Below the pieces are notes generated by a model. The model did not search any database and had not been told where the DNA came from. It saw nothing but the letters and a program-made list of their open reading frames with translations. A stretch of DNA of 64,000 nucleotides from Candidatus Gottesmanbacteria bacterium RIFCSPLOWO2_01_FULL_43_11b (GTDB lineage Bacteria > Patescibacteriota > Microgenomatia > UBA10105 > UBA927). Positions 5,563 to 38,524 of the stretch are shown piece after piece. The translations under genes and the position numbers were made by a program. The stretch's first letter is position 1; every line of letters starts with the position of its first letter. The stretch spans positions 158,980 to 222,979 of the forward strand of contig MFJV01000001.1 in NCBI GenBank assembly GCA_001780985.1, given 5' to 3'.

Positions 5563-5684
5563 ATGAGGCGGATTCTAGTACTCCACGTTCTCTCTGTCAA
5601 ATTTAGTACGCTTGAGCAAAAAGGAAATCGGTGAAAAACGCTTCTACCGTAACGAGCTTCGATCTATCGATAAATCGAAGTATT

Positions 5685-6065
5685 TTATTTTCGTAATTTG
5701 CTAATTTTATCAAGTGCTCTATTAACCTTATCCCAAAACACTTCCATCTTTTCCTCATGTATCAACTTTTCTAGAATCCGCTTTACGCCCTCCCCTCCTT
5801 TATCCAACCAATTTCCTACTCTGTTAATCGTTGAAGTGCTCACATGAAGTATAAAGTGTATATCTTCATAGCTGTATTCTTTTTGTATCATAAGAGCAAT
5901 CGCTAATCTTTTTGCCAACATGACTCGTTCTGTTTTCGTAAAAAAATCGTAGAAAAAATCCTTCGCTTCTGATTGAGATCGAATTGCACCTAACACCCAC
6001 AAAAAATCATCTCGAATTGAGTAATAGACATCTTTATGAATCGGATTACGAGAAATTTGTGTCAT
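5685..6065 (-). CDS. TrpR-like DNA-binding protein, YerC/YecD family
   Basis: 126 aa. TERVMLAKRLAIALMIQKEYSYEDI..VSTSTINRV is the YerC/YecD helix-turn-helix pattern. Confidence 0.75.
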   Translation of the reverse strand: MTQISRNPIHKDVYYSIRDDFLWVLGAIRSQSEAKDFFYDFFTKTERVMLAKRLAIALMIQKEYSYEDIHFILHVSTSTINRVGNWLDKGGEGVKRILEKLIHEEKMEVFWDKVNRALDKISKLRK

Positions 6066-6124
6066 TGCGTTCTACTTTCATCTATCGATAGATGAAAGTA
6101 TTTTATAAGGAAAGTCAACGACTA

Positions 6125-7594
6125 TCAATACGCTTGGGCGAAAAGCCAGCGGTGGGTAGCGGGTTTGCCGCAGTGAACACACGTTCCCTTTTCTTCTTTC
6201 GGCACCTGCCTGCCGGCAGGCAGGTCTAAGGGTAAACAACGGTTTGAAGCTTTGGTTTCTGCTTTAATTTTTGTTTCGCACGAGGCATCCTCACACCAAA
6301 ATGCGGAAATAAATCCCCGCTCCCCCGCCATAATCTTTTTAAAATGATCATACGATTCTACCGTATGTGTATGATCCAGAGTAAATTTCTTGTGAGTTTC
6401 CAATAAATTTTGTTGTATCGTCTCTAACATGCCAGAAATTTCATCGATACTAACTTTCTTTTTTTGCATTGTATCGCGAGCAACAGCAGTAACTATTCCT
6501 TCTTCCGCTTCCTTATCACCAATCTCAAGTCGGATCGGCACACCCCGGACCTCCCATTTATTAAATTTAAAGCCTGCACTTTCCCCATCTTTATCATCGC
6601 ATTTGACGCGAATCCCTATTTTTTTCAGCGCCTCTCTTTGTGCTATTGCATATTTTATGGTTTTAGGGCTCGATCCAGGAATAGGAATAAGGATCACCTG
6701 AATAGGTGCGATATTTGGAGGCATAATGAGCCCTTGATCGTCTCCGTGCGCCATGATGAGCCCGCCGATACTTCTTGTGGAGAATCCCCAACTGTTTTGC
6801 CACGGATAGAGCGGCTGTCCTTTTTCATCCTGCACAGTCCAATGAAATGCTTTTGCAAAATTTTGACCTAAATCGTGTGACGTACAACCTTGAAGCGCCT
6901 TACCATCCGGCATCAACATTTCAAAGGTATACGTTTTCTTAGCACCGGCAAATTTTTCCGATTCGCTCTTAACACCTGCAACACCGTAGAGAGCGAGAAG
7001 ATTCTGGTACGTCTCTTTGTACATATCGAGTGCCCAACGAACCTCGGAAACCGACTCTTTGTGAGTATTATGAGCGCAGTGTCCTTCCTGCCACAGAAAT
7101 TCACTCGTTCGTAAAAAGAGATACGTTCGCTTCTCCCATCGAACAATGTTATTCCATTGATTGATGCGGATTGGCAAATCTCTGTAGCTTTGAGTCCAAC
7201 GTTTGTACATTTCATACATAATCGTTTCACTGGTCGGCCGCACCACTAAGCGTTCTTTGAGTTCTTCTCCGCCAGCAAAAGTCACCACAGCCATATGAGG
7301 AGCAAATCCCTCTACGTGTTCTTTTTCAAGATTAAGGAATTTTTCCGGTATAAAGAGAGGAAAATACGCATTCTCCACTTTATGAGCTTTAATAAGTGGA
7401 TCCATGTAGTGTTGAATTCCTTCCCATAGCGCGAATCCATACGGACGAATAACCATACACCCCTTTATCGGCGCGTAATCGGCAAGTTGGGCTTTCAAAA
7501 TAACGTCTGTATACCAATCCGATAGATTGTCGCTTTTTTTCTTGAGCTCTTTCTTTTCAAATTGCTTTTGCATATTAGTAAAGTTTTCCTCCAA
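6125..7594 (-). CDS. proS: proline--tRNA ligase (archaeal/eukaryote-like type, C-terminal zinc module ending in Y)
   Basis: 489 aa with class II aaRS motifs. The C-terminus CVHCGKPATHRWLFAQAY is typical of this ProRS type. Contains the DLPAGRQ palindrome insert. Confidence 0.92.
   Translation of the reverse strand: MEENFTNMQKQFEKKELKKKSDNLSDWYTDVILKAQLADYAPIKGCMVIRPYGFALWEGIQHYMDPLIKAHKVENAYFPLFIPEKFLNLEKEHVEGFAPHMAVVTFAGGEELKERLVVRPTSETIMYEMYKRWTQSYRDLPIRINQWNNIVRWEKRTYLFLRTSEFLWQEGHCAHNTHKESVSEVRWALDMYKETYQNLLALYGVAGVKSESEKFAGAKKTYTFEMLMPDGKALQGCTSHDLGQNFAKAFHWTVQDEKGQPLYPWQNSWGFSTRSIGGLIMAHGDDQGLIMPPNIAPIQVILIPIPGSSPKTIKYAIAQREALKKIGIRVKCDDKDGESAGFKFNKWEVRGVPIRLEIGDKEAEEGIVTAVARDTMQKKKVSIDEISGMLETIQQNLLETHKKFTLDHTHTVESYDHFKKIMAGERGFISAFWCEDASCETKIKAETKASNRCLPLDLPAGRQVPKEEKGTCVHCGKPATHRWLFAQAY
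6204..6225. repeat. 22-bp perfect palindrome acctgcctgccggcaggcaggt (copy 1, inside proS)
   Basis: Read directly from the sequence. It is self-complementary, and the same core occurs at 24939 and 37006. Confidence 0.95.
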
Positions 7595-17568: not shown

Positions 17569-17611
17569 GAAGAGGTTAGGTTCTTTAAAAGAGGGCGGAA
17601 ATTGGAAAATT

Positions 17612-17755
17612 TAAAGCGTGTGGACCAGCCCCTCGCGAGGAGCTGGTATACGAGGAAGGGGAAAATCGAATAGCCCGCCAGTCGGCGGATAAATCTGCGG
17701 ATACCCCTTGGTAGCGCTCTCTACCACAACAATAGACAGAAATGACTATTGAGGA
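17612..17755 (+). promoter_or_regulatory. glmS ribozyme/riboswitch
   Basis: aA|GCG cleavage-site context at 17615/17616. P1 hairpin gaccagc..gctggt. Conserved core strings ACGAGGA and AUCGAA..UCGGCGGAU. Sits directly upstream of glmS. Confidence 0.75.
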
Positions 17756-17778
17756 GCCCGTCTCTCTTTCTAAACTTC

Positions 17779-19551
17779 ATGTGTGGAATATTTGGCTACG
17801 TTGGTCCTAGCCCTCATGGTGCAAAGATAGTTCTTGAAGGTCTCAAACGACTTGAATATCGCGGTTACGATAGTTGGGGAGTTGCTGTTGTACCTGCTTC
17901 AAAGGGTAAAATTGTCGTAAAGAAAAAAGCCGGAAGAATAGGCAAAGCTAGTGTTTCTGATATGCCAAAAGGGTCTGTTGCGTTCGGGCATACCCGCTGG
18001 GCAACCCATGGAGGAGTTACCGATGTTAATGCACACCCTCACCTTGACTGCACAGGAAATCTTGCTGTCATTCACAATGGTATTTTTGAAAACTATGAGA
18101 GTATAAAGCAGGATCTTATTAAAAAAGGGCACCGTTTTATCTCCCAAACAGATACCGAAGTTATCGCCCACCTCATTGAAGAATATGCAAAGACCATGAT
18201 GTTAAGTAAGGCAGTGCAACGGGCGTATAACGAAATGGAAGGTCTTAACGCATTCATAGTTATCCAGACAAAAGAACACCTCCTCCTTGGGGTAAGAAAT
18301 GGGTCACCCTTAGTCGTCGGATTCGGAGATCCGGAAAATTATTTGGCAAGTGATGCTGCAGCGCTCATTCCCCATACCCGGCAGGTTCATTTTCTTGAAG
18401 ATGATCAAATGGTAATTGTTGGAACTGATCAGGTAAACATATTTAACGCAAGAACCGGTGAACGCATTCGTCCGCTTAAACAGAAACTTACCTGGTCAGC
18501 AGAGCAGGCAGAAAAAGGAAAATTCCCTTATTTCATGCTGAAAGAAATTTATGAACAGCCCGGGCTTATTTCAGAAATTGCCGGAGAATCAACGATCCAA
18601 GCCAAAAAAATTGCGGAGGTTCTTAAAAACGCACATGGCGCCTATATCGTTGGCTGCGGAACTGCCGGATATGCTGCTCTTGCTGCTCAATATCTCTTTT
18701 CAGCCATATCAAACAGACACGTTAACTCTGTTATTGGCAGCGAATTTGGCTACCTCCAAAATTTTCTCGTGAAAAGAAGTGCCGTACTTGCCCTTTCACA
18801 ATCCGGCGAAACCATGGATATTCTTGAGGGAGTCAAGAAAGCCAAAGACAAAGGTGCAAAAATTGTTTCTTTGGTTAATGTCGTCGGATCCTCGCTTTGG
18901 CGGTTATCAGATGTAAGACTCCCAATTGGTGTAGGGCCGGAGAAAGGGGTCGCATCTACCAAAGCATTCATCGGGAAACTTACCCATCTCATACTTCTCT
19001 CTTACGCAATGATAGGCAAAATTACCAAGGGTCAGCGGATACTCACGCGGGCTGCAAAAGCAGCAACCGAGGTTCTCAAAGAGCAGCGGGTGAGTAAAAT
19101 AATGAAACTTGCAAAAAAACTCAAAAATACGGAACATATTTTTGTTATCGGGAGAGGGCTTTCATATCCTGCGGCGCTTGAAACAGCGCTAAAAATTAAG
19201 GAAATTTCCTATATCCATGCCGAGGGCTTGGCCGCAGGGGAACTCAAACACGGCCCACTTGCGCTTGTGACGAAAGGCATTCCCTGCATCGTATTTGCAC
19301 CCAACGATGAAACACAGGGAGCAAATCTTGCGGGAGCCATGGAAATGAAAGCACGAGGTGCGTATATTATCGGGATCTCACCCAAAAAGCATGAGGTTTT
19401 TGATTATTATCTGCCGGTTAAAGACGTGGGAGAGGCAACAATTATTCCCAATGTCATCGTTGCCCAGCTTCTGGCGTACTATTTAGCAATAGAGCGCGGC
19501 TTCGACCCCGATATGCCGAGGAATCTAGCAAAAAGTGTAACAGTAAAATGA
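17779..19551 (+). CDS. glmS: glutamine--fructose-6-phosphate aminotransferase
   Basis: Starts MCGIFGY (Ntn Cys) at ATG 17779, contains two SIS domains, and ends ..AKSVTVK. Confidence 0.93.
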   Translation: MCGIFGYVGPSPHGAKIVLEGLKRLEYRGYDSWGVAVVPASKGKIVVKKKAGRIGKASVSDMPKGSVAFGHTRWATHGGVTDVNAHPHLDCTGNLAVIHNGIFENYESIKQDLIKKGHRFISQTDTEVIAHLIEEYAKTMMLSKAVQRAYNEMEGLNAFIVIQTKEHLLLGVRNGSPLVVGFGDPENYLASDAAALIPHTRQVHFLEDDQMVIVGTDQVNIFNARTGERIRPLKQKLTWSAEQAEKGKFPYFMLKEIYEQPGLISEIAGESTIQAKKIAEVLKNAHGAYIVGCGTAGYAALAAQYLFSAISNRHVNSVIGSEFGYLQNFLVKRSAVLALSQSGETMDILEGVKKAKDKGAKIVSLVNVVGSSLWRLSDVRLPIGVGPEKGVASTKAFIGKLTHLILLSYAMIGKITKGQRILTRAAKAATEVLKEQRVSKIMKLAKKLKNTEHIFVIGRGLSYPAALETALKIKEISYIHAEGLAAGELKHGPLALVTKGIPCIVFAPNDETQGANLAGAMEMKARGAYIIGISPKKHEVFDYYLPVKDVGEATIIPNVIVAQLLAYYLAIERGFDPDMPRNLAKSVTVK

Positions 19552-23711: not shown

Positions 23712-24885
23712 TCGATCTATGGAGGAGTACTCCGATAAGTATTGGTATAATGGGAAGCACTCGAAGCCATAACCGCGTCACAGCAATTTCGTCTCCAAAC
23801 TGCAGGAAAATGTAAAGCAAAATAAATCCTGCAACTCGAAATACGCTTATCACAACCGACTGTTCAAGTAATAAATGATATTTATTCTTCCATCCTCCGG
23901 GAGATGCATCAAGCACACGATAAACCTCAAGTGTCAGAGCATTCACATAAAAGGCCGCTGTCATTCCTAAAACAAGTATATACACCCATCCGCCAAAAAT
24001 AGTATCGAATGATCCCAATGAATACACTGCGATAACGGTGCCTATTACTCCTATCCAAAACCCATACCGATACCGTTTGAGAAATGCAATCGAGACAATG
24101 CTGCCGATTGCTCCCAAAGCGGAGGCGACTGTTAATGCAAGTCCAAGTGCCGCTTCCCCTCTCAAAAGTATGTACAGCAAGATTCCGGATACTGTTGACA
24201 ATGCAACGTCGAAAAATCCCATAAGCCCTTGCTGCCACAGCACAAGACCCCATCGTGTACTTCGACGGTGGTGTATTACGTGTCTATACGAAAATTGCGG
24301 TGGATCATGAGAAGGAAGTTTCTCTATAAGAATGACCGCTGCAGTCAAAATGGTAAACACGATGAGAAACAAAATCGCGTAACCTGTTGAAATCGATCCT
24401 GATAACTGTCCGATGCCGGCAATTATCCAGCCGCCCAAAACCGGCCCCAATGCGCTGGCAAAATTTATGAGCGCAAGATTCCAACCGATATACTCCGCAC
24501 GTCTTCCGGAATGGGTAAGTATATACTGATTGAGGTTAAACGCGGACCAGTAGTTACCGCCGGAAAATCCGCCTAAGATACCTAATGGCACTAAATACGC
24601 AATGCTCCTTTCCTTGAAGAAAAACAGTAGGAAATAATACAGGGCGCTTGCCAGAAAACTTATTTTCATCATAAGCCCTGATGAAATTTTCCGTAGCGTT
24701 ATTCCTGAAAGTCCGTAGAAAAATGCGAATGATGTAAATGAAACGATGTTATAAAAAATTGTGGTTTTAAGGTCGCTATGGGCAAAGAAAAACACGCTGA
24801 CAAACACCCCTGCAAGGGCGTAGGAGAGAAAGTTTAAAAATTGGATGATTATGAGCTTACGCTCTTCGTTAGATAAATTCCGCAT
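23647..24885 (-). CDS. MFS transporter
   Basis: About 12 predicted hydrophobic helices. The track ORF begins at a TTG (24906), so ATG 24885 is more likely. Confidence 0.78.
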   Translation of the reverse strand: MRNLSNEERKLIIIQFLNFLSYALAGVFVSVFFFAHSDLKTTIFYNIVSFTSFAFFYGLSGITLRKISSGLMMKISFLASALYYFLLFFFKERSIAYLVPLGILGGFSGGNYWSAFNLNQYILTHSGRRAEYIGWNLALINFASALGPVLGGWIIAGIGQLSGSISTGYAILFLIVFTILTAAVILIEKLPSHDPPQFSYRHVIHHRRSTRWGLVLWQQGLMGFFDVALSTVSGILLYILLRGEAALGLALTVASALGAIGSIVSIAFLKRYRYGFWIGVIGTVIAVYSLGSFDTIFGGWVYILVLGMTAAFYVNALTLEVYRVLDASPGGWKNKYHLLLEQSVVISVFRVAGFILLYIFLQFGDEIAVTRLWLRVLPIIPILIGVLLHRSTKTARSAAMHPVPLADTKNLP

Positions 24886-24938
24886 ATTTAGCCCATTGTA
24901 ACGCAAAAAACATTTTTCTCAAAGGTACCGAGCCGCCG

Positions 24939-24958
24939 CCTGCCTGCCGGCAGGCAGG
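24939..24958. repeat. 20-bp perfect palindrome cctgcctgccggcaggcagg (copy 2, disrupting the msrB 5' region)
   Basis: Read directly from the sequence. Removing exactly these 20 nt joins KGTEPP to [17 protein letters not shown] in one frame. Confidence 0.95.
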
Positions 24959-24994
24959 TTTAGTGGAAAATACTACAACAACCACGATCCCGGA

Positions 24995-25258
24995 ATGTAT
25001 GTTTGTGTTTCGTGTGGGAATAAATTATTCAGTAGCGACACCAAATACGATAGCGGCACCGGCTGGCCGAGTTTTTGGAAAACTTCGGGAAAAGTAAAAA
25101 CGAGTGAGGATCATTCTATGGGAATGATTCGCACCGAGGTTATGTGCGGAAACTGTAGCGCACACCTCGGACATGTCTTTAATGACGGCCCTCGAGACAA
25201 AACCGGTCTACGCTACTGCATTAATTCCCTCGCCCTCGATTTTCGACCGAAGGAGTGA
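24995..25258 (+). CDS. msrB: peptide-methionine (R)-S-oxide reductase MsrB, 5'-disrupted (possibly a pseudogene or truncated form)
   Basis: CVSCG..CGNC zinc site, GWPSF, and the RYCINS catalytic Cys region. The conserved upstream KGTEPP segment lies in another frame and has no start codon. Confidence 0.75.
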
Positions 25259-27966: not shown

Positions 27967-28663
27967 CATGTTTATTCCCGGTTTTCACCGGGGCATGGAC
28001 TATATCTTCATCCGCAAAAATTGACGTTTTTCTGGATGAACCGAACCAATTATTTTTGCAAAATCGTTGTAAGACCTTGCCGAAATATAAAATCTCCAAT
28101 AATTCGGATCAACCGTTTTACTAGGATTATGAATTACTCCACAATGAATACTTAATTCTTCTAAATAGTGTTTTACTTGTAAAAGATCTTGCTTGTCCTT
28201 TTGACAAAAATACAAGTAATACCTCACCGAAGAATTTTTAGCAATACCACCTTCTGCATCGAAATAACCTCGGATATATTCGATTTTGTCGTTCTTAGAA
28301 CGTATTTCAATATCTCGTAAAATCTTTTTCGGAAATTCTACTATCCAAAGATTACGAGACTTTCCTTCTTTATATATCCAAGCTCCAACATGTAATTTAC
28401 GAATTCCTATTTTTAGAAACTGCGCAAATTCTCTACTGTTAGTTGCTATTCGATAGGTAGATTGCCGACTGGTACCATCGTGAGCCATTCCCAATAAATA
28501 TGGTTTCGTCATATGCGGCGCCAACGTGTAGTCTCTACGGAGTCCCCGATATAATCAGGGTTCCCTCGGTATTCCCATATGTTGATTATAAACCAAGCAT
28601 GAAGGGTTCACCGATACAGTTGGATTTTCCCATACCCTTACGGATATGGGTCGCAACAAACTT
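27967..28663 (-). mobile_element. group I intron (697 nt) in the 16S 3' region (inside the 1492R primer site), carrying a homing endonuclease ORF
   Basis: It splits AAGTCGT|AACAAGG. The 5' exon ends in U and the intron ends in G. Core strings AGAGACUACACG (28525..28536) and GAUAUAGUCC (27997..28006) flank the ORF. Confidence 0.8.
28000..28524 (-). CDS. LAGLIDADG homing endonuclease (intron-encoded)
   Basis: 174 aa with two LAGLIDADG-like motifs (YLLGMAHDGT and YIRGYFDAEGG). The TAG stop lies inside the intron core element GAUAUAGUCC. Confidence 0.82.
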   Translation of the reverse strand: MAPHMTKPYLLGMAHDGTSRQSTYRIATNSREFAQFLKIGIRKLHVGAWIYKEGKSRNLWIVEFPKKILRDIEIRSKNDKIEYIRGYFDAEGGIAKNSSVRYYLYFCQKDKQDLLQVKHYLEELSIHCGVIHNPSKTVDPNYWRFYISARSYNDFAKIIGSVHPEKRQFLRMKI

Positions 28664-29056
28664 ACGACTTAGTCCCCATCGCTGAGTTCGGCTTCGACCG
28701 TAAAAACGGCCTTCAGCCGCCCCCAACTTTGTTGGCTTGACGGGCGGTGTGTACAAGACCCGAGAACGTATTCACCGCAGCCTTCTGATCTGCGATTACT
28801 ACCGATTCCGACTTCATGAGGGCGGGTTGCAGCCCTCAATCTGAACTGAGGCGAAATTTCAGGGATTTGCTTGCCATTACTAGTTTGCATCCCATTGTTT
28901 TTCGCCATTGTAGGGTGTGTGTTACCCAGGGTATAAGCGCCGTGCTGACTTGACGTCGTCCGTTCCTTCCTCCCCGATACATATCGGGGCAGTCTCCGAT
29001 GACACTTATAACATCGGATACGGGTTGCGCTCGTTCTCCTACTTAAAGGAACACCC

Positions 29057-29087
<31 letters not shown>

Positions 29088-29202
29088 GCTGTGATACCAT
29101 CCTTGCGGATAGCCTACTATTTCTAGCGGGTTAAAACGGTACCATGTCAAACCCTGGTAAGGTTTTTCGCTTTGTCTCGAATTGAACCACACGCTCCACC
29201 GG

Positions 29203-29234
<32 letters not shown>

Positions 29235-29625
29235 TAATCTTGCGATCGTACTCCCCAGGCGGTCTGCTTAACGCGTTAGCTTACGTCAGTCCCCCTTGCG
29301 GCGGACCAACTAGCAGACATGCGTTTAGGGCTAGGACTACGCAGGTCTCTAATCTGCTTCGCTCCCCTAGCTTTCGTGTCTCAGCGTTAGGTGTGGGCCA
29401 GAAAGGTGCCTTCGCCTTTGGTGTTCCTCATGATATCAACGCATTTCACTGCTTCACCATGAGTTCCCCTTTCCTCTCCCATCCTCAAAGACTCCCCATC
29501 TCGAACCCAACGCCGAGGTTAAGCCTCGGGCTTTCAGGTTCGATGCGGAAATCCGCCTACACGACACTTTACGCCCAGTGAATCCGGATAACGCTTGCAC
29601 CCTACGTATTACCGCGACTGCTGGC

Positions 29626-29880
29626 CCGCCACAATTTTTTGTAGCGAACTTTGGACTATATCATCACCCCACAGATTGGGGGTCTCGCGTGTAGTCTCTG
29701 AGGACTCTCCCCGCCATCCTTTCATTATAAATGAAGGCGGAGGTTGCCTGCTGATTGTCTTGATACATGCTTGCTTTCGCAAAACTATTTCGCGGACATA
29801 TCAAGGTGTTCCAGCATATAGCGAGATTTTCTTTTACCGTATTACTACAGTAACTACGCACCATCCGATTACATCGAATC
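29626..29880 (-). mobile_element. ORF-less group I intron (255 nt) in the 16S 515-region
   Basis: It splits AACTACGT|GCCAGCAG. It has the same AGAGACUACACG (29688..29699) and GAUAUAGUCC (29653..29662) core strings as the other intron, with a short P8-like hairpin between them. It starts after U and ends in G. Confidence 0.75.
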
Positions 29881-30286
29881 ACGTAGTTTGTAGGTGCTTA
29901 TTCGCCAAACCTCGATGATCTGGCAAAAGAGGTTTACATACCGAAATACTTCATCCCTCACGCGGCGTCGCTCGGTCAGGCTTTCGCCCATTGCCGAATA
30001 TTCCTAGTTGCTGCCATCCGTAGATGTATAGCCCGTGTCTCAGTGCTATTGTGGGGGGTCGCGCTCTCACGCCCCCTACCCGTCATCGCCTTGGTAGGCC
30101 ATTACCCCACCAACAAGCTGATAGGAGCAAGGCCGCTCTTCCTCCGTGCCGTTACGCACTTTGATCTTACGACCTCATGGAATATTACCCCGTCTTTCGA
30201 CGAGCTATGTTCCAGAAAAAGGTACGTTCCTTGCTTATACTCACCCGTCCGCCACTAATCTTTCGACCGTTCAACTTGCATGCCTA

Positions 30287-30329
<43 letters not shown>

Positions 30330-30470
30330 AAAAAAAATTAACGTCCCGGATATCATGATTCGCTTACGCTCATCACCATCCGGGTCCGGCTGATGTCGCA
30401 ACGCGACATAATAGCCGGATTCCTATCACCATTCGTTTGTCAAATGTTAATGTGCGACTCTCAATGAGCG

Positions 30471-36520: not shown

Positions 36521-38524
36521 TTATTTTATATCTTCTTTCTTCCATGCTGCAAATGTGCAGTTGGGGTAGTTTGAACAACCGTAAAATGTTTTGCCGCGGC
36601 GGGTCTTTTTAATCACAATATCTCCCCCATCCCTCGGGCATTTCATATCAATTTTTTCTGCAAATTGGCGCGTATATTTGCACGCTGGAAAGTTACTGCA
36701 GGCGATAAATTTCCCGTATCTTCCCACACGCAAAACGAGCTGATGACCGCAGTCCGGGCACTTTTCATCAAGTAATTCAACCGGCGTTTTTACTTTTTCT
36801 GCCTGATCGAAAGCTGCGTCAAGCTCTTTGGCAAAAGGCGTATAAAAATCTCTTATTACAGGCACCCACTCTACTTGCCCGTCGGCAATAGCGTCTAAGT
36901 TATCCTCCATAGTTGCGGTAAAGGGGATATCAATAATATTCGGAAAATATTTTATTAGGAAATCGTTGACCAAAAAGCCCAATTCAGTTGGTTTCAACTT
37001 TTTTCCCTGCCTGCCGGCAGGCAGGTCTTCCCGCACTATGTACTGGCGTTCCTGAATTGTTGAAATAACCGGCGCATAGGTAGAAGGGCGTCCGATCCCT
37101 TTTTCCTCAAGCGTTTTAATTAGCGAAGCCTCATTGTAGCGAGGGGGTGGATTTGTAAAATGTTGTTCTGGTATGGCTTGGTTAAATCCTATTTCTTGCC
37201 CCTGTGTAACCTCGGGAAGAACAACTTCCCCGTTATCTTTTCCGAGAATTTTCAAAAACCCCTCAAATTTTATAACCGATCCCTGGGCTTCAAAAAGATA
37301 CGTATTGCTACTTGTAATTTTTATCGTTGTGGAATCAAAAATCGCTTCAGCTGCCTGGCTTGCGAGCGCCCGTATCCAAATAAGCTCATAGAGTCTGATA
37401 TGGTCACGGTTAAGTTCTGCGCTGTCGATCGTAAGCTGAGCGCCTTGTACAGTTGCATCTGTGGGTCTAATTGCTTCGTGAGCCTCCTGGGCTGATTTTG
37501 ATTTTGTTTTGTATCGACGCGCCTCTGCCGGTACATACTCTTTGCCGTATTCTTTTTCTATATAATCCCGCGCTTCACTAATAAATTTCTCAGACAGGTT
37601 AAAACTGTCGGTTCTGTGGTAGCTTATCAAACCCTCTTCGTAGAGTTTTTGAGCAAGTTGCATTGTGCGTTTCGCAGAAAAGTATAATCTTCGGCCCGCA
37701 TCCTGCTGGAGTGTGCTTGTCGTATAGGGAGGGGCCGGAAACCGTCTCACTTCTTTTTTGTCTACTGAAGAGACGATATAGGGTGATTTTAAATCTTTGA
37801 TTATGGTATCTGCTGCGTTTTGGTCAGTTATTGTCGAGGAAGCCGTAGTATATTTTCCGTCAAAAAGATCAAATTCAAGATTTTTTTCATACAAAACACC
37901 CTCTTTGGAAACCAGGTGTGCATGAATTTCCCCGAATACCCCTTCAATTGTCCAGAACTCTTCTTTTTGAAATTTTTCTATTTCTCTTTCCCGCTCAACG
38001 ATAAACCGTACGGCGACTGATTGAACCCTTCCTGCTGAAAGCCAACGGCGGGAAAGTTTCTGCCAAAGGAGTGGGGACAATTTGTATCCAACAAGTCGAT
38101 CTAATATCCTTCTAGCCTGCTGCGCGTTTACGAGTTTTTGGTCAATTTCACGCGGATGCGTTAGCGCTTCGGCAATCGCGTGTTCCGTTATCTCATGGAA
38201 TACTATTCGAGTAAACTTCGACTTTTTTAGTGTGTCCGCAACGTGCCAGGCAATTGCCTCTCCCTCCCGATCCGGGTCGGTTGCAAGAATAATCGAATCT
38301 GCCTTCTTTGCTGCGTCTTTGAGTTCTTTGGCGCGCTTTGCTTTCGCACGCGGGGTGACATATCTGGGGGTAAAGTCATGATCGACATCAACCCCGAGTT
38401 CGGATTTCGGCAAATCACGAATATGCCCCATCGATGCTTCAATTCGATAATCTTTACCGAGAAATCTCGACAGAGTTTTAGCTTTTGTTGGTGATTCAAC
38501 AATAATGAGATGATAATTTTTCAT
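36521..38524 (-). CDS. topA: DNA topoisomerase I
   Basis: Toprim start LIIVESPTKAKT, active-site region SYHRTDS, and two C-terminal zinc ribbons. Contains the DLPAGRQ palindrome insert. Confidence 0.93.
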   Translation of the reverse strand: MKNYHLIIVESPTKAKTLSRFLGKDYRIEASMGHIRDLPKSELGVDVDHDFTPRYVTPRAKAKRAKELKDAAKKADSIILATDPDREGEAIAWHVADTLKKSKFTRIVFHEITEHAIAEALTHPREIDQKLVNAQQARRILDRLVGYKLSPLLWQKLSRRWLSAGRVQSVAVRFIVEREREIEKFQKEEFWTIEGVFGEIHAHLVSKEGVLYEKNLEFDLFDGKYTTASSTITDQNAADTIIKDLKSPYIVSSVDKKEVRRFPAPPYTTSTLQQDAGRRLYFSAKRTMQLAQKLYEEGLISYHRTDSFNLSEKFISEARDYIEKEYGKEYVPAEARRYKTKSKSAQEAHEAIRPTDATVQGAQLTIDSAELNRDHIRLYELIWIRALASQAAEAIFDSTTIKITSSNTYLFEAQGSVIKFEGFLKILGKDNGEVVLPEVTQGQEIGFNQAIPEQHFTNPPPRYNEASLIKTLEEKGIGRPSTYAPVISTIQERQYIVREDLPAGRQGKKLKPTELGFLVNDFLIKYFPNIIDIPFTATMEDNLDAIADGQVEWVPVIRDFYTPFAKELDAAFDQAEKVKTPVELLDEKCPDCGHQLVLRVGRYGKFIACSNFPACKYTRQFAEKIDMKCPRDGGDIVIKKTRRGKTFYGCSNYPNCTFAAWKKEDIK
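37006..37025. repeat. 20-bp perfect palindrome cctgcctgccggcaggcagg (copy 3, inside topA)
   Basis: Read directly from the sequence. Translated in-frame as DLPAGRQ, the same frame as in proS. Confidence 0.95.

Follow-up and report, generated by a model that had tools for sequence, protein, structure and literature searches.

The subject of this report is a short palindrome, which we call P, that occurs three times in a 64,000-nucleotide (nt) stretch of DNA ("the window") from Candidatus Gottesmanbacteria bacterium RIFCSPLOWO2_01_FULL_43_11b (contig MFJV01000001.1, positions 158,980 to 222,979). P is an exact 20-mer, CCTGCCTGCCGGCAGGCAGG, and we conclude with considerable assurance that it represents a genuine, precise family of palindromic insertions that crosses phylum boundaries. 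P is tightly associated with a tRNA-resident cassette that carries an Slx1-like GIY-YIG nuclease. We lean toward the combined view that P is a non-autonomous mobile palindrome and that this nuclease is its probable partner. The narrower proposition, that the nuclease is what mobilizes P, is an inference on which our judgment is nearly balanced, falling slightly on the doubtful side.

The invariant unit of P is 20 nt long and perfectly palindromic. It is predicted to fold into an 8-bp stem capped by a CCGG loop (-13.9 kcal/mol as RNA), and the same stem-loop could form as single-stranded DNA. The window has a G+C content of 43%, and P is the sole GC-rich perfect palindrome of such size in it. 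The copies of P and the genes that contain them are as follows.

6205..6224: P copy 1, within proS; together with its neighbors A (6204) and T (6225), it forms a perfect palindrome of 22 nt
24939..24958: P copy 2, within an msrB remnant; an exact 20-nt insertion that causes a frameshift
37006..37025: P copy 3, within topA; read as DLPAGRQ, with a net insertion of 21 nt
6125..7594, minus strand: proS, encoding an archaeal/eukaryote-type prolyl-tRNA synthetase (ProRS); E = 6e-143 to T. thermophilus ProRS 1H4Q
36521..38524, minus strand: topA, encoding DNA topoisomerase I; E = 1e-146 to solved TopA chains
24873..25258, plus strand: msrB remnant, frameshifted by P; the open reading frame (ORF) is intact only from 24995

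No further match to P with three or fewer mismatches exists in the window. The number of copies expected from 100 dinucleotide-preserving shuffles of the window was 0.00, compared to the three observed, and we thus agree with an earlier note on this stretch, which held that three identical palindromes could not be due to chance. That note also described a 22-bp perfect palindrome in proS that is translated as DLPAGRQ (correct for 6204-6225, read from the minus strand) and a 21-nt core common to the three sites. The latter description is literally accurate, as a T directly follows all three copies on the plus strand. A candidate for a decayed fourth copy, in tsf (10935), was rejected: its 16 matches out of 20 represent a chance resemblance in the native EF-Ts motif SDCRQAL. 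In Rfam, nothing corresponds to the sites of P. The same DNA, with P in it, is found at 100% identity in public assemblies of this organism that come from other samples (in ENA, Logan, and JGI; L156, L157, L165, and L166); the presence of the same P-bearing sequence in independent assemblies means that P is not an artefact of a single one.

P is not peculiar to this organism. A scan of genomes, limited to one per species, yielded at least 120 P loci, each in a different record, and a metagenome scan yielded at least 120 more. About 11 phylum labels are represented among the genome matches listed. They include many classes of the candidate phyla radiation (CPR), Bacteroidota, Omnitrophota, Planctomycetota, Verrucomicrobia/PVC, and Elusimicrobia, along with Thermodesulfovibrionales, Thermodesulfobacteriota/"delta", Bdellovibrionales, Chloroflexi, and metagenome-assembled genomes (MAGs) labelled as Gammaproteobacteria. 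Cultured carriers are found in the Bacteroidota genera Winogradskyella, Flagellimonas, Flavivirga, Aestuariivivens, Aquiflexum, Longitalea, and Agriterribacter, and those named to species include Winogradskyella echinorum KCTC 22026, Flagellimonas yonaguniensis, and Longitalea luteola. In IMG/VR, 35 stretches contain P, and a single 29.5-kb contig has as many as six copies; two composition-matched control palindromes had 0 and 0 matches in the viral collection. Exact P was absent from PLSDB plasmids, INPHARED phages, and 5,426 E. coli genomes. In loci that carry P, its density is roughly one copy per 20-50 kb. The sequences that flank P are unrelated between loci, and therefore the 20-mer itself is the unit. 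Variants of P include one-mismatch forms (five with G8A and five with its mirror image), forms of 16 nt that lack one CCTG unit, and one doubly changed sequence that is again a perfect palindrome. We also considered that a 10-nt arm may be added separately at each broken end; the one-arm variants, split five and five, are what single mutations of a palindrome would produce and speak neither for nor against this idea. The literature that we searched has no occurrence of the 20-mer, of its shorter cores, or of the peptides LPAGRQ, PACRQAG, and CLPAGR, and topic searches of it led solely to the analogous systems discussed below.

The consequences of insertion can be read with some precision from the genes in the window. 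Both proS and topA read P as DLPAGRQ on the minus strand. In an alignment of the window's ProRS with the solved homolog 1H4Q, a seven-residue gap falls exactly at the insert, and a gap of exactly seven residues is likewise found when TopA is aligned with E. coli TopA and with chain 6OZW. In ProRS, the insert occupies a loop of the C-terminal zinc-binding domain, directly before the GxCxxCG motif. None of the best 120 ProRS homologs (up to 84% identity) has LPAGRQ; they read RCLPLDAKEEKGxC at this position. The closest relatives among the matches listed are labelled Gottesmanbacteria or Patescibacteria. An AlphaFold model of ProRS depicts residues 450-457 as coil, with the per-residue confidence score (pLDDT) below 50 at 452-455 and confidently modelled strands on either side; further, the length of this loop varies among orthologs. 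The earlier note had left the extent of the insert and its placement in a loop as matters to be checked, and the alignment (seven added residues, absent from the homologs) and the model (a coil with low pLDDT at a length-variable position) answer both. As to other length differences at this location, P0001 (84% identity), the closest homolog among the matches listed, has DQKGLPGTSAMPG in this loop, an insertion that bears no relation to P, and several other homologs have 4-5 additional residues in the same C-terminal loop. The loop is a natural hotspot for length variation. A separate observation concerns contig ends: in at least four other assemblies of the same organism (L158-L161), contigs terminate at window position 7133 or 7072, inside proS and about 900 nt from P, which suggests either strain-level variation or an assembly break.

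The copy associated with msrB had a different outcome. The earlier note placed it in front of the gene. This was mistaken; the copy is inside the coding sequence, where it separates the codons for Pro and Phe in the conserved motif GTEPPFSG, without a target duplication. Deletion of exactly those 20 nt restores a contiguous MsrB reading that is free of gaps relative to solved MsrB structures from KGTEPPF onward. Downstream of P, 87 codons stay open. Upstream, there is no ATG, GTG, or TTG start, and the approximately 16 N-terminal residues that precede KGTEPP cannot be aligned to MsrB. Pieces of the expected N-terminal motifs seem to be scattered across three frames in 24873-24994, which suggests further small insertions or deletions. 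The remnant, where public assemblies with the same DNA call no gene, is probably a pseudogene. All three copies of P in the window are thus solo; those in proS and topA are rescued, and the remaining one is unrescued and disrupts the msrB remnant. The earlier note's notion of tolerated in-frame insertions in the two essential genes holds for proS and topA, with their seven-residue gaps and shared phase; in msrB, P breaks the frame.

At sites not under selection where the uninterrupted sequence can be reconstructed (msrB, the D-arm copies in tRNA fragments when compared to the adjacent intact tRNA, and the boundaries of tandem-repeat units), P adds exactly 20 bp and no target duplication. In protein-coding cases with a reference, on the other hand, the net gain is always 21 nt. 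As an insertion of 20 nt puts a gene out of frame, P would persist in an essential gene only if a further nucleotide is gained close by or at the junction itself. In proS, removal of P leaves tta gat gcc+g aaa gaa gaa aag gga, i.e., L D A, one surplus base, and KEEKG. An ortholog that is 80% identical has GAC GCG AAG GAA GAA AAG GG, and orthologs read LPLDAKEEKG. The surplus base can be placed as follows.

6200..6203, minus strand: putative compensating +1 nucleotide in proS; GA[P]T GCC G AAA as opposed to GAC GCG AAG in the ortholog

The simplest history, as far as sequence comparison can suggest one, would be an insertion between GA and T, followed by the gain of one base 3-4 nt downstream. 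In topA, the surplus base is either the C at 37005 or one base of the T run at 36999-37004, and its placement is not unique. An RfbB gene (L021) has two nested copies of P that sum to 42 nt (9+20+13), with two extra A residues in the right arm of the outer copy; its reconstructed ancestor (E-D-L) presumably had the length of E. coli RfbB. AtpA (L207), S6 (L047), and ScpB (L053) fit a seven-residue insertion by eye when compared to what we take to be their family consensus. In TopA, AtpA, S6, and ScpB, the additional base adjoins the terminal GG of P or is found in a homopolymer run. We rejected the possibility that the true element has 21 or 22 nt (A+P or P+T); S6 and ScpB have G as their 21st base, and the msrB insertion is exactly 20 nt.

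Across all loci from genomes with less than 55% G+C, 19 of the 26 copies of P that are spanned by long ORFs are in the phase that reads xLPAGRQx, and the ORFs that span P in other phases are mostly doubtful. The LPAGRQ phase is the sole reading of P without a cysteine. The genes that host P in frame are proS, topA, ftsK, gatB, rfbB, atpA, rpsF, and scpB, where the names of those outside the window are assignments made by eye from motifs, not database matches. The coding copies of P have passed a filter for a restored frame: the primary 20-nt insertion breaks it, and the in-frame state is secondary, having been reached via one added nucleotide.

Most copies of P are intergenic, with no ORF that spans them, and the sites are not a random sample of the genome. 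Flanking stems of at least 6 bp, with P at the tip or at the loop-stem junction of an inverted repeat, occur at 9.6% of P sites and at 3.2% of controls. The base that adjoins P (-1) is A in 42% of the arms and T in 9%. P also enters itself; the three nested cases are all split 11 and 9, which is within the CCGG loop. P is over-represented in the D-, anticodon-, and T-arms of tRNA genes. Among 297 copies, at least nine by strict motif and about 18 by eye are in a tRNA D-arm, typically between GGTAGA and GC. Adjacent direct repeats of 7-14 nt, or a position between short tandem repeats, are far commoner at P than at controls. There is no enrichment of stop codons in the outward flanks of P. We also considered and rejected the idea that P represents the joined terminal repeats of a larger insertion sequence; half-sites outside of P are rare and never bracket an element.

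Several individual loci merit description. P is often found exactly between tandem-repeat units of 7-30 nt (e.g., L101:1815, L171:429, L129:8396, L214:435, and L004:4462), and such arrays could reflect either a preference of P or local duplication induced by the hairpin. In two related viral contigs (L122:8616 and L145:2284), P occupies the same boundary between the variable loop and T-stem of a tRNA-Met-like sequence; one of the two has lost 13 nt of the T-arm right beside P, a sign that the palindrome is locally unstable. Four phage contigs that are related but have diverged (L121, L139, L144, and L150) have P 110-430 nt downstream of the same ORF of about 330 amino acids (aa). This ORF has no Pfam match, and the head-gene region around it includes portal and capsid genes. 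Different heptamer repeats flank each of these copies (gtgagag, gtgaaag, ttgcgga).

Clustering of the ORFs from all P loci brought to light a small GIY-YIG protein of 80-90 aa. Relaxed clustering revealed only housekeeping and phage head genes as other protein families beside P. An iterative search found 19 GIY-YIG ORFs in the P-seeded loci, and 18 of these were kept for a proximity test. Eleven of the 18 are within 150 nt of P; the permuted mean was 2.7, and the maximum in 2000 trials was 7. These ORFs are part of a cassette with a recurrent order: a partial tRNA copy that contains P, the GIY-YIG ORF, and an intact tRNA. The partial copy usually comprises tRNA positions 1 to about 38, with P in the D-arm or the anticodon stem. 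The ORF starts directly after the anticodon arm, and the first bases of the downstream tRNA often supply its final codons and stop. Tandem cassettes and cassette remnants occur, with the 5' parts of the tRNA duplicated. The tRNA copies that bear P are truncated 5' or 3' fragments beside an intact copy; ARAGORN found no tRNA across any P-deleted junction, and we thus discarded the idea that these are interrupted, functional tRNA genes that require excision at the RNA level. Two loci depart from this arrangement. At L077:3028-3047, a P-like 20-mer, ACTGCCTGACGGCAGGCAGG, replaces 20 nt of a partial tRNA copy with no net addition. In a Saccharibacteria MAG (L093:4758-5042), a GIY-YIG ORF of the same family is inside the 23S rRNA gene, where it resembles an rRNA intervening sequence or a homing-type insertion.

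The cassette proteins match Pfam PF01541 (E = 1e-14 to 1e-17), and 14 sequences show no change in the catalytic residues Y, Y, G, R, H, and E. Their nearest solved relatives are the UPF0213 structures 1ZG2 and 1YWL, and SLX1. A profile search with a five-sequence alignment of the nuclease retrieved only two viral loci. The association was then approached from the opposite direction: six nuclease homologs were picked by protein similarity alone, and their genomic contexts were fetched afterwards. In four of the six (L291, L292, L295, and L298), the partial tRNA copy beside the gene contains exact P; in L298, this copy is a 3' fragment with P in its T-loop. A fifth, L290, has variants of P beside the nuclease gene. 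The sixth, L294, is more divergent and from a GC-rich host; it has a different palindrome, CCCGCCGCAGGCGGG, at the positions of P (437 and 638). Another divergent GIY-YIG relative (L220) is accompanied by the palindrome TGCACCGTACGGTGCA, which recurs in its locus (5265 and 7398). L294 and L220 may represent sister pairs of nuclease and palindrome. The earlier note's guess that a nuclease or transposase might recognize the center of P gains indirect support from the association with a GIY-YIG gene.

These facts suggest a scheme for the spread of P. The cassette nuclease would be a structure-selective enzyme that cuts stem-loop DNA. As a trans-acting partner, it would either make the breaks into which P is placed or mobilize P directly, in a relationship resembling that of repetitive extragenic palindromic (REP) sequences with REP-associated tyrosine transposases (RAYTs). 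More divergent nucleases would be accompanied by different palindromes, and the rescued copies in coding sequences would then encode a tolerated seven-residue loop, nearly always LPAGRQ. We tentatively raise a broader possibility, to which we give less credence than to the partnership itself: P and the small Slx1/UPF0213-type GIY-YIG gene may constitute a previously unrecognized class of selfish DNA. This would be a cassette, resident at tRNA genes, that disperses the smallest known transposable unit. The unit would insert precisely and without duplication at stem-loops throughout the genome, essential genes included, and would move horizontally between at least ten phyla and their phages, while other nuclease lineages would have palindromes of their own.

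A number of facts weigh against the scheme and should temper its acceptance. The window has no GIY-YIG gene, about 95% of P copies are far from any such gene, and most of the P-bearing viral contigs showed none. We know of no biochemistry that would let a GIY-YIG nuclease insert a defined 20-mer, and the association of P with the nuclease could be passive. We found no presence/absence polymorphism of P that would attest to its current mobility: the organism of the window has all checked copies in every assembly examined, a search for empty alleles at two viral sites found only filled ones, the proS site was unmatched in the metagenome collection, and look-ups with neighboring proteins returned only identical, filled sequences. 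The scheme also requires an essential gene to survive between the 20-nt insertion and its +1 compensation, and, as an alternative to two steps, a minority of the insertions may have been 21 nt from the start. Finally, the phylum labels of the MAGs are the depositors' own.

The most serious competitor to this partnership is that P targets hairpins through the agency of host replication or repair, or of some other enzyme, and that it merely survives in the dispensable partial tRNA copies that the cassettes provide. The solo state of most copies and the lack of a nuclease gene in the window are what this explanation would predict; further, P nests in its own loop and at hairpins unrelated to tRNA, and no protein family is generally enriched beside it. 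However, P or a variant is present at five of the six independently chosen nuclease homologs, such that the cassettes are nearly saturated, and the enrichment of P in partial tRNA copies, measured against the fraction of a genome that such copies take up, is on the order of 1000-fold, a rough estimate from assumed copy numbers. Divergent nucleases (L294 and L220) also have different palindromes at the same positions, which is akin to the co-variation of partners. The near-saturation of the cassettes and the different palindromes of divergent nucleases are the reasons that we favor a true partnership, and we consider passive survival unlikely, although it is the only rival to which we would assign real weight.

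The remaining alternatives are harder to sustain. P could be a functional cis-element (a terminator, an RNA-stabilizing hairpin, or a protein-binding site) that was selected for and spread with horizontally transferred DNA. Its stable hairpin, its perfect conservation, the intergenic location of most copies, and its position downstream of the same ORF in four phage contigs accord with such a role. Yet the outward flanks have no excess of stop codons and, by inspection, no evident T-tract, and the flanks are unrelated, which means that P did not arrive with transferred neighbors. This explanation would also leave unaccounted for the insertions that break msrB, that enter essential proteins with a +1 compensation, that are nested, and that lie in tRNA fragments; we regard it as improbable. 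More improbable still is the removal or bypass of P at the RNA level, in the manner of a mini-intron or of the yeast mitochondrial "byp" elements, which would render the genic copies silent. GC-rich hairpin byps are a precedent for translational bypass, and the msrB copy, exactly 20 nt long and uncompensated, is nonetheless followed by 87 open codons. A silent intermediate would also explain how essential genes tolerated the first step. However, removal of 20 nt destroys the frames of proS and topA, which are intact only when P is translated, and so P must be translated there. The msrB remnant, for its part, has neither a start codon nor an alignable N-terminus, and no matching take-off and landing codons surround its copy of P; the P-bearing tRNA copies are truncated fragments, not interrupted functional genes. 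An artefact (an adaptor, an assembly chimera, or chance) might be suspected of any short, GC-rich palindrome with matches mostly in MAGs, but it merits hardly any credence here. Independent assemblies and samples are identical, and the carriers, as judged from contig and record names, apparently include isolates, complete chromosomes, and the products of different assemblers and read technologies. Moreover, the frames of essential genes are restored by an extra base, and neither the control palindromes nor the window shuffles yielded a single match.

Comparison with established systems sharpens the description of P and its inferred nuclease partner. REP sequences are short, GC-rich palindromic repeats, most of which lie between genes and a few within them (PMC3733652). 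Like P, REPs and REP doublets forming hairpins (REPINs) are short (20-40 bp), non-autonomous palindromes in many copies. Both kinds of repeat accompany a single-copy gene of nuclease type that is flanked by the repeat, and in both, different enzyme lineages have their own palindromes. REPs have a conserved, unpaired GTAG or CGTC tag at one end, whereas P shows no enrichment of adjacent GTAG (3 of 336 arms) or CGTC (2 of 336), and its probable partner is a GIY-YIG nuclease instead of an HUH-Y1 transposase. All-against-all clustering of ORFs, which did not include a dedicated Y1 profile search, found no transposase family beside P. REP families are specific to a species or genus and vertically inherited, whereas P is identical across many phyla and phages and is tied to tRNA genes. 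Rickettsia palindromic elements (RPEs), with which the earlier note had drawn a parallel, are about 150 bp long, fall into ten families, and were described in Rickettsia (PMC10969869). The parallel is apt as an analogy: like P, RPEs are palindromic repeats found in frame in unrelated, often essential genes, to which they add a tolerated peptide. It fails as a matter of membership, as P has 20 bp and seven residues (compared to about 100-150 bp and a peptide of 30-50 residues), requires a +1 correction, and is found under about 11 phylum labels among the matches listed, as well as in viral contigs, instead of in one genus.

Fungal mitochondria offer another comparison. The GC clusters and byps of these organelles are described as short, GC-rich, hairpin-forming mobile elements (PMC4478555). 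They resemble P in their AT-rich host genomes, their nesting, their invasion of both intergenic and coding DNA, and the obscurity of the mechanism by which they move. Their differences are that they are organellar, about 30-60 nt long, often associated with target duplications, and bypassed by the ribosome when in coding sequences, whereas P is bacterial or phage-borne, 20 bp, and translated. The PstI palindromes of Neurospora and the elements of Magnusiomyces are further fungal mitochondrial examples. P also differs from miniature inverted-repeat transposable elements, in that it creates no target duplication (at the msrB, tRNA, and repeat-unit sites) and no longer element is bounded by half-sites.

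As for the nuclease, T4 SegB is a free-standing GIY-YIG homing gene in a tRNA gene cluster (PMC2330249). Genes of this type share with the P cassette their selfish character and their location in or between tRNA genes, and the tandem cassettes and the copy in a 23S rRNA gene (L093) fit homing behavior. However, Seg and Tev enzymes have a DNA-binding domain and at least 200 aa, as opposed to the bare catalytic domain of 80-90 aa, of the Slx1/UPF0213 branch, in the P cassettes. Also particular to the cassettes are the ORF's stop, which is often inside the downstream tRNA sequence, and the dispersed palindrome that accompanies it; to our knowledge, no dispersed repeat is associated with Seg enzymes. 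The Slx1/YhbQ/YazA (UPF0213) family comprises structure-selective nucleases, of which E. coli has YhbQ (PMC7017083). The cassette nuclease belongs to the same branch of the catalytic domain, and if it prefers branched or stem-loop DNA, this would accord with the location of P at loop-stem junctions. Slx1, though, functions in repair and has both a zinc-finger domain and a partner protein, Slx4, unlike the bare-domain cassette nuclease, and E. coli has YhbQ, yet exact P is in none of the 5,426 E. coli genomes scanned. We are not aware of any described link between the UPF0213 family and repeats or tRNA genes. A study of subsurface Patescibacteria included GIY-YIG domain genes among those predicted to have been transferred to other bacteria (PMC12455944). 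In sum, P acts most like a REP sequence with its RAYT, yet in size, tags, target duplication, partner enzyme, or host range it fails the defining tests of the families to which we compared it, and there is a substantial chance that P and its nuclease deserve a category of their own.

If this partnership is real, it has several implications. A 20-bp, non-coding sequence would stay letter-perfect across very distant bacteria and phages, while remodeling essential proteins (ProRS, TopA, AtpA, FtsK, GatB, and S6) through a fixed, seven-residue loop and inactivating other genes, such as msrB. The parallel with REPs and RAYTs, but with a different nuclease fold, would suggest that pairs of nuclease and palindrome have arisen on more than one occasion. 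The partnership would also suggest a possible function, linked to tRNA genes and a dispersed repeat, for bare-domain UPF0213/Slx1-like GIY-YIG proteins; CPR bacteria and Bacteroidota commonly have such proteins, whose annotation is simply "GIY-YIG nuclease family protein". In a practical vein, P can serve as a marker for frameshifted "pseudogenes" and odd, seven-residue inserts in the annotation of MAGs. The existence of cultured carriers makes the hypothesis testable in the laboratory.

The window has other features of note. Its 16S rRNA gene (28616-30335, minus strand) is approximately 1.72 kb long and contains a group I intron at 29631-29890 (Rfam RF00028, 57 bits); a 16S rRNA gene interrupted by an intron is typical of CPR bacteria. 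Together with the labels of the closest ProRS relatives listed, this identifies the host as a CPR bacterium of the Microgenomates type. Two AT-rich palindromes (5657-5680 and 6073-6100) share a common core, ATCTATCGATAGAT, and bracket a gene of the Trp-repressor family at 5685-6065. The second of these, 28 nt in length, directly separates the gene from the end of proS. The two palindromes are likely operators for a putative autoregulation of the Trp-repressor-family gene. Finally, a glmS ribozyme (17604-17761) is present immediately upstream of the glmS ORF (17749-19551).

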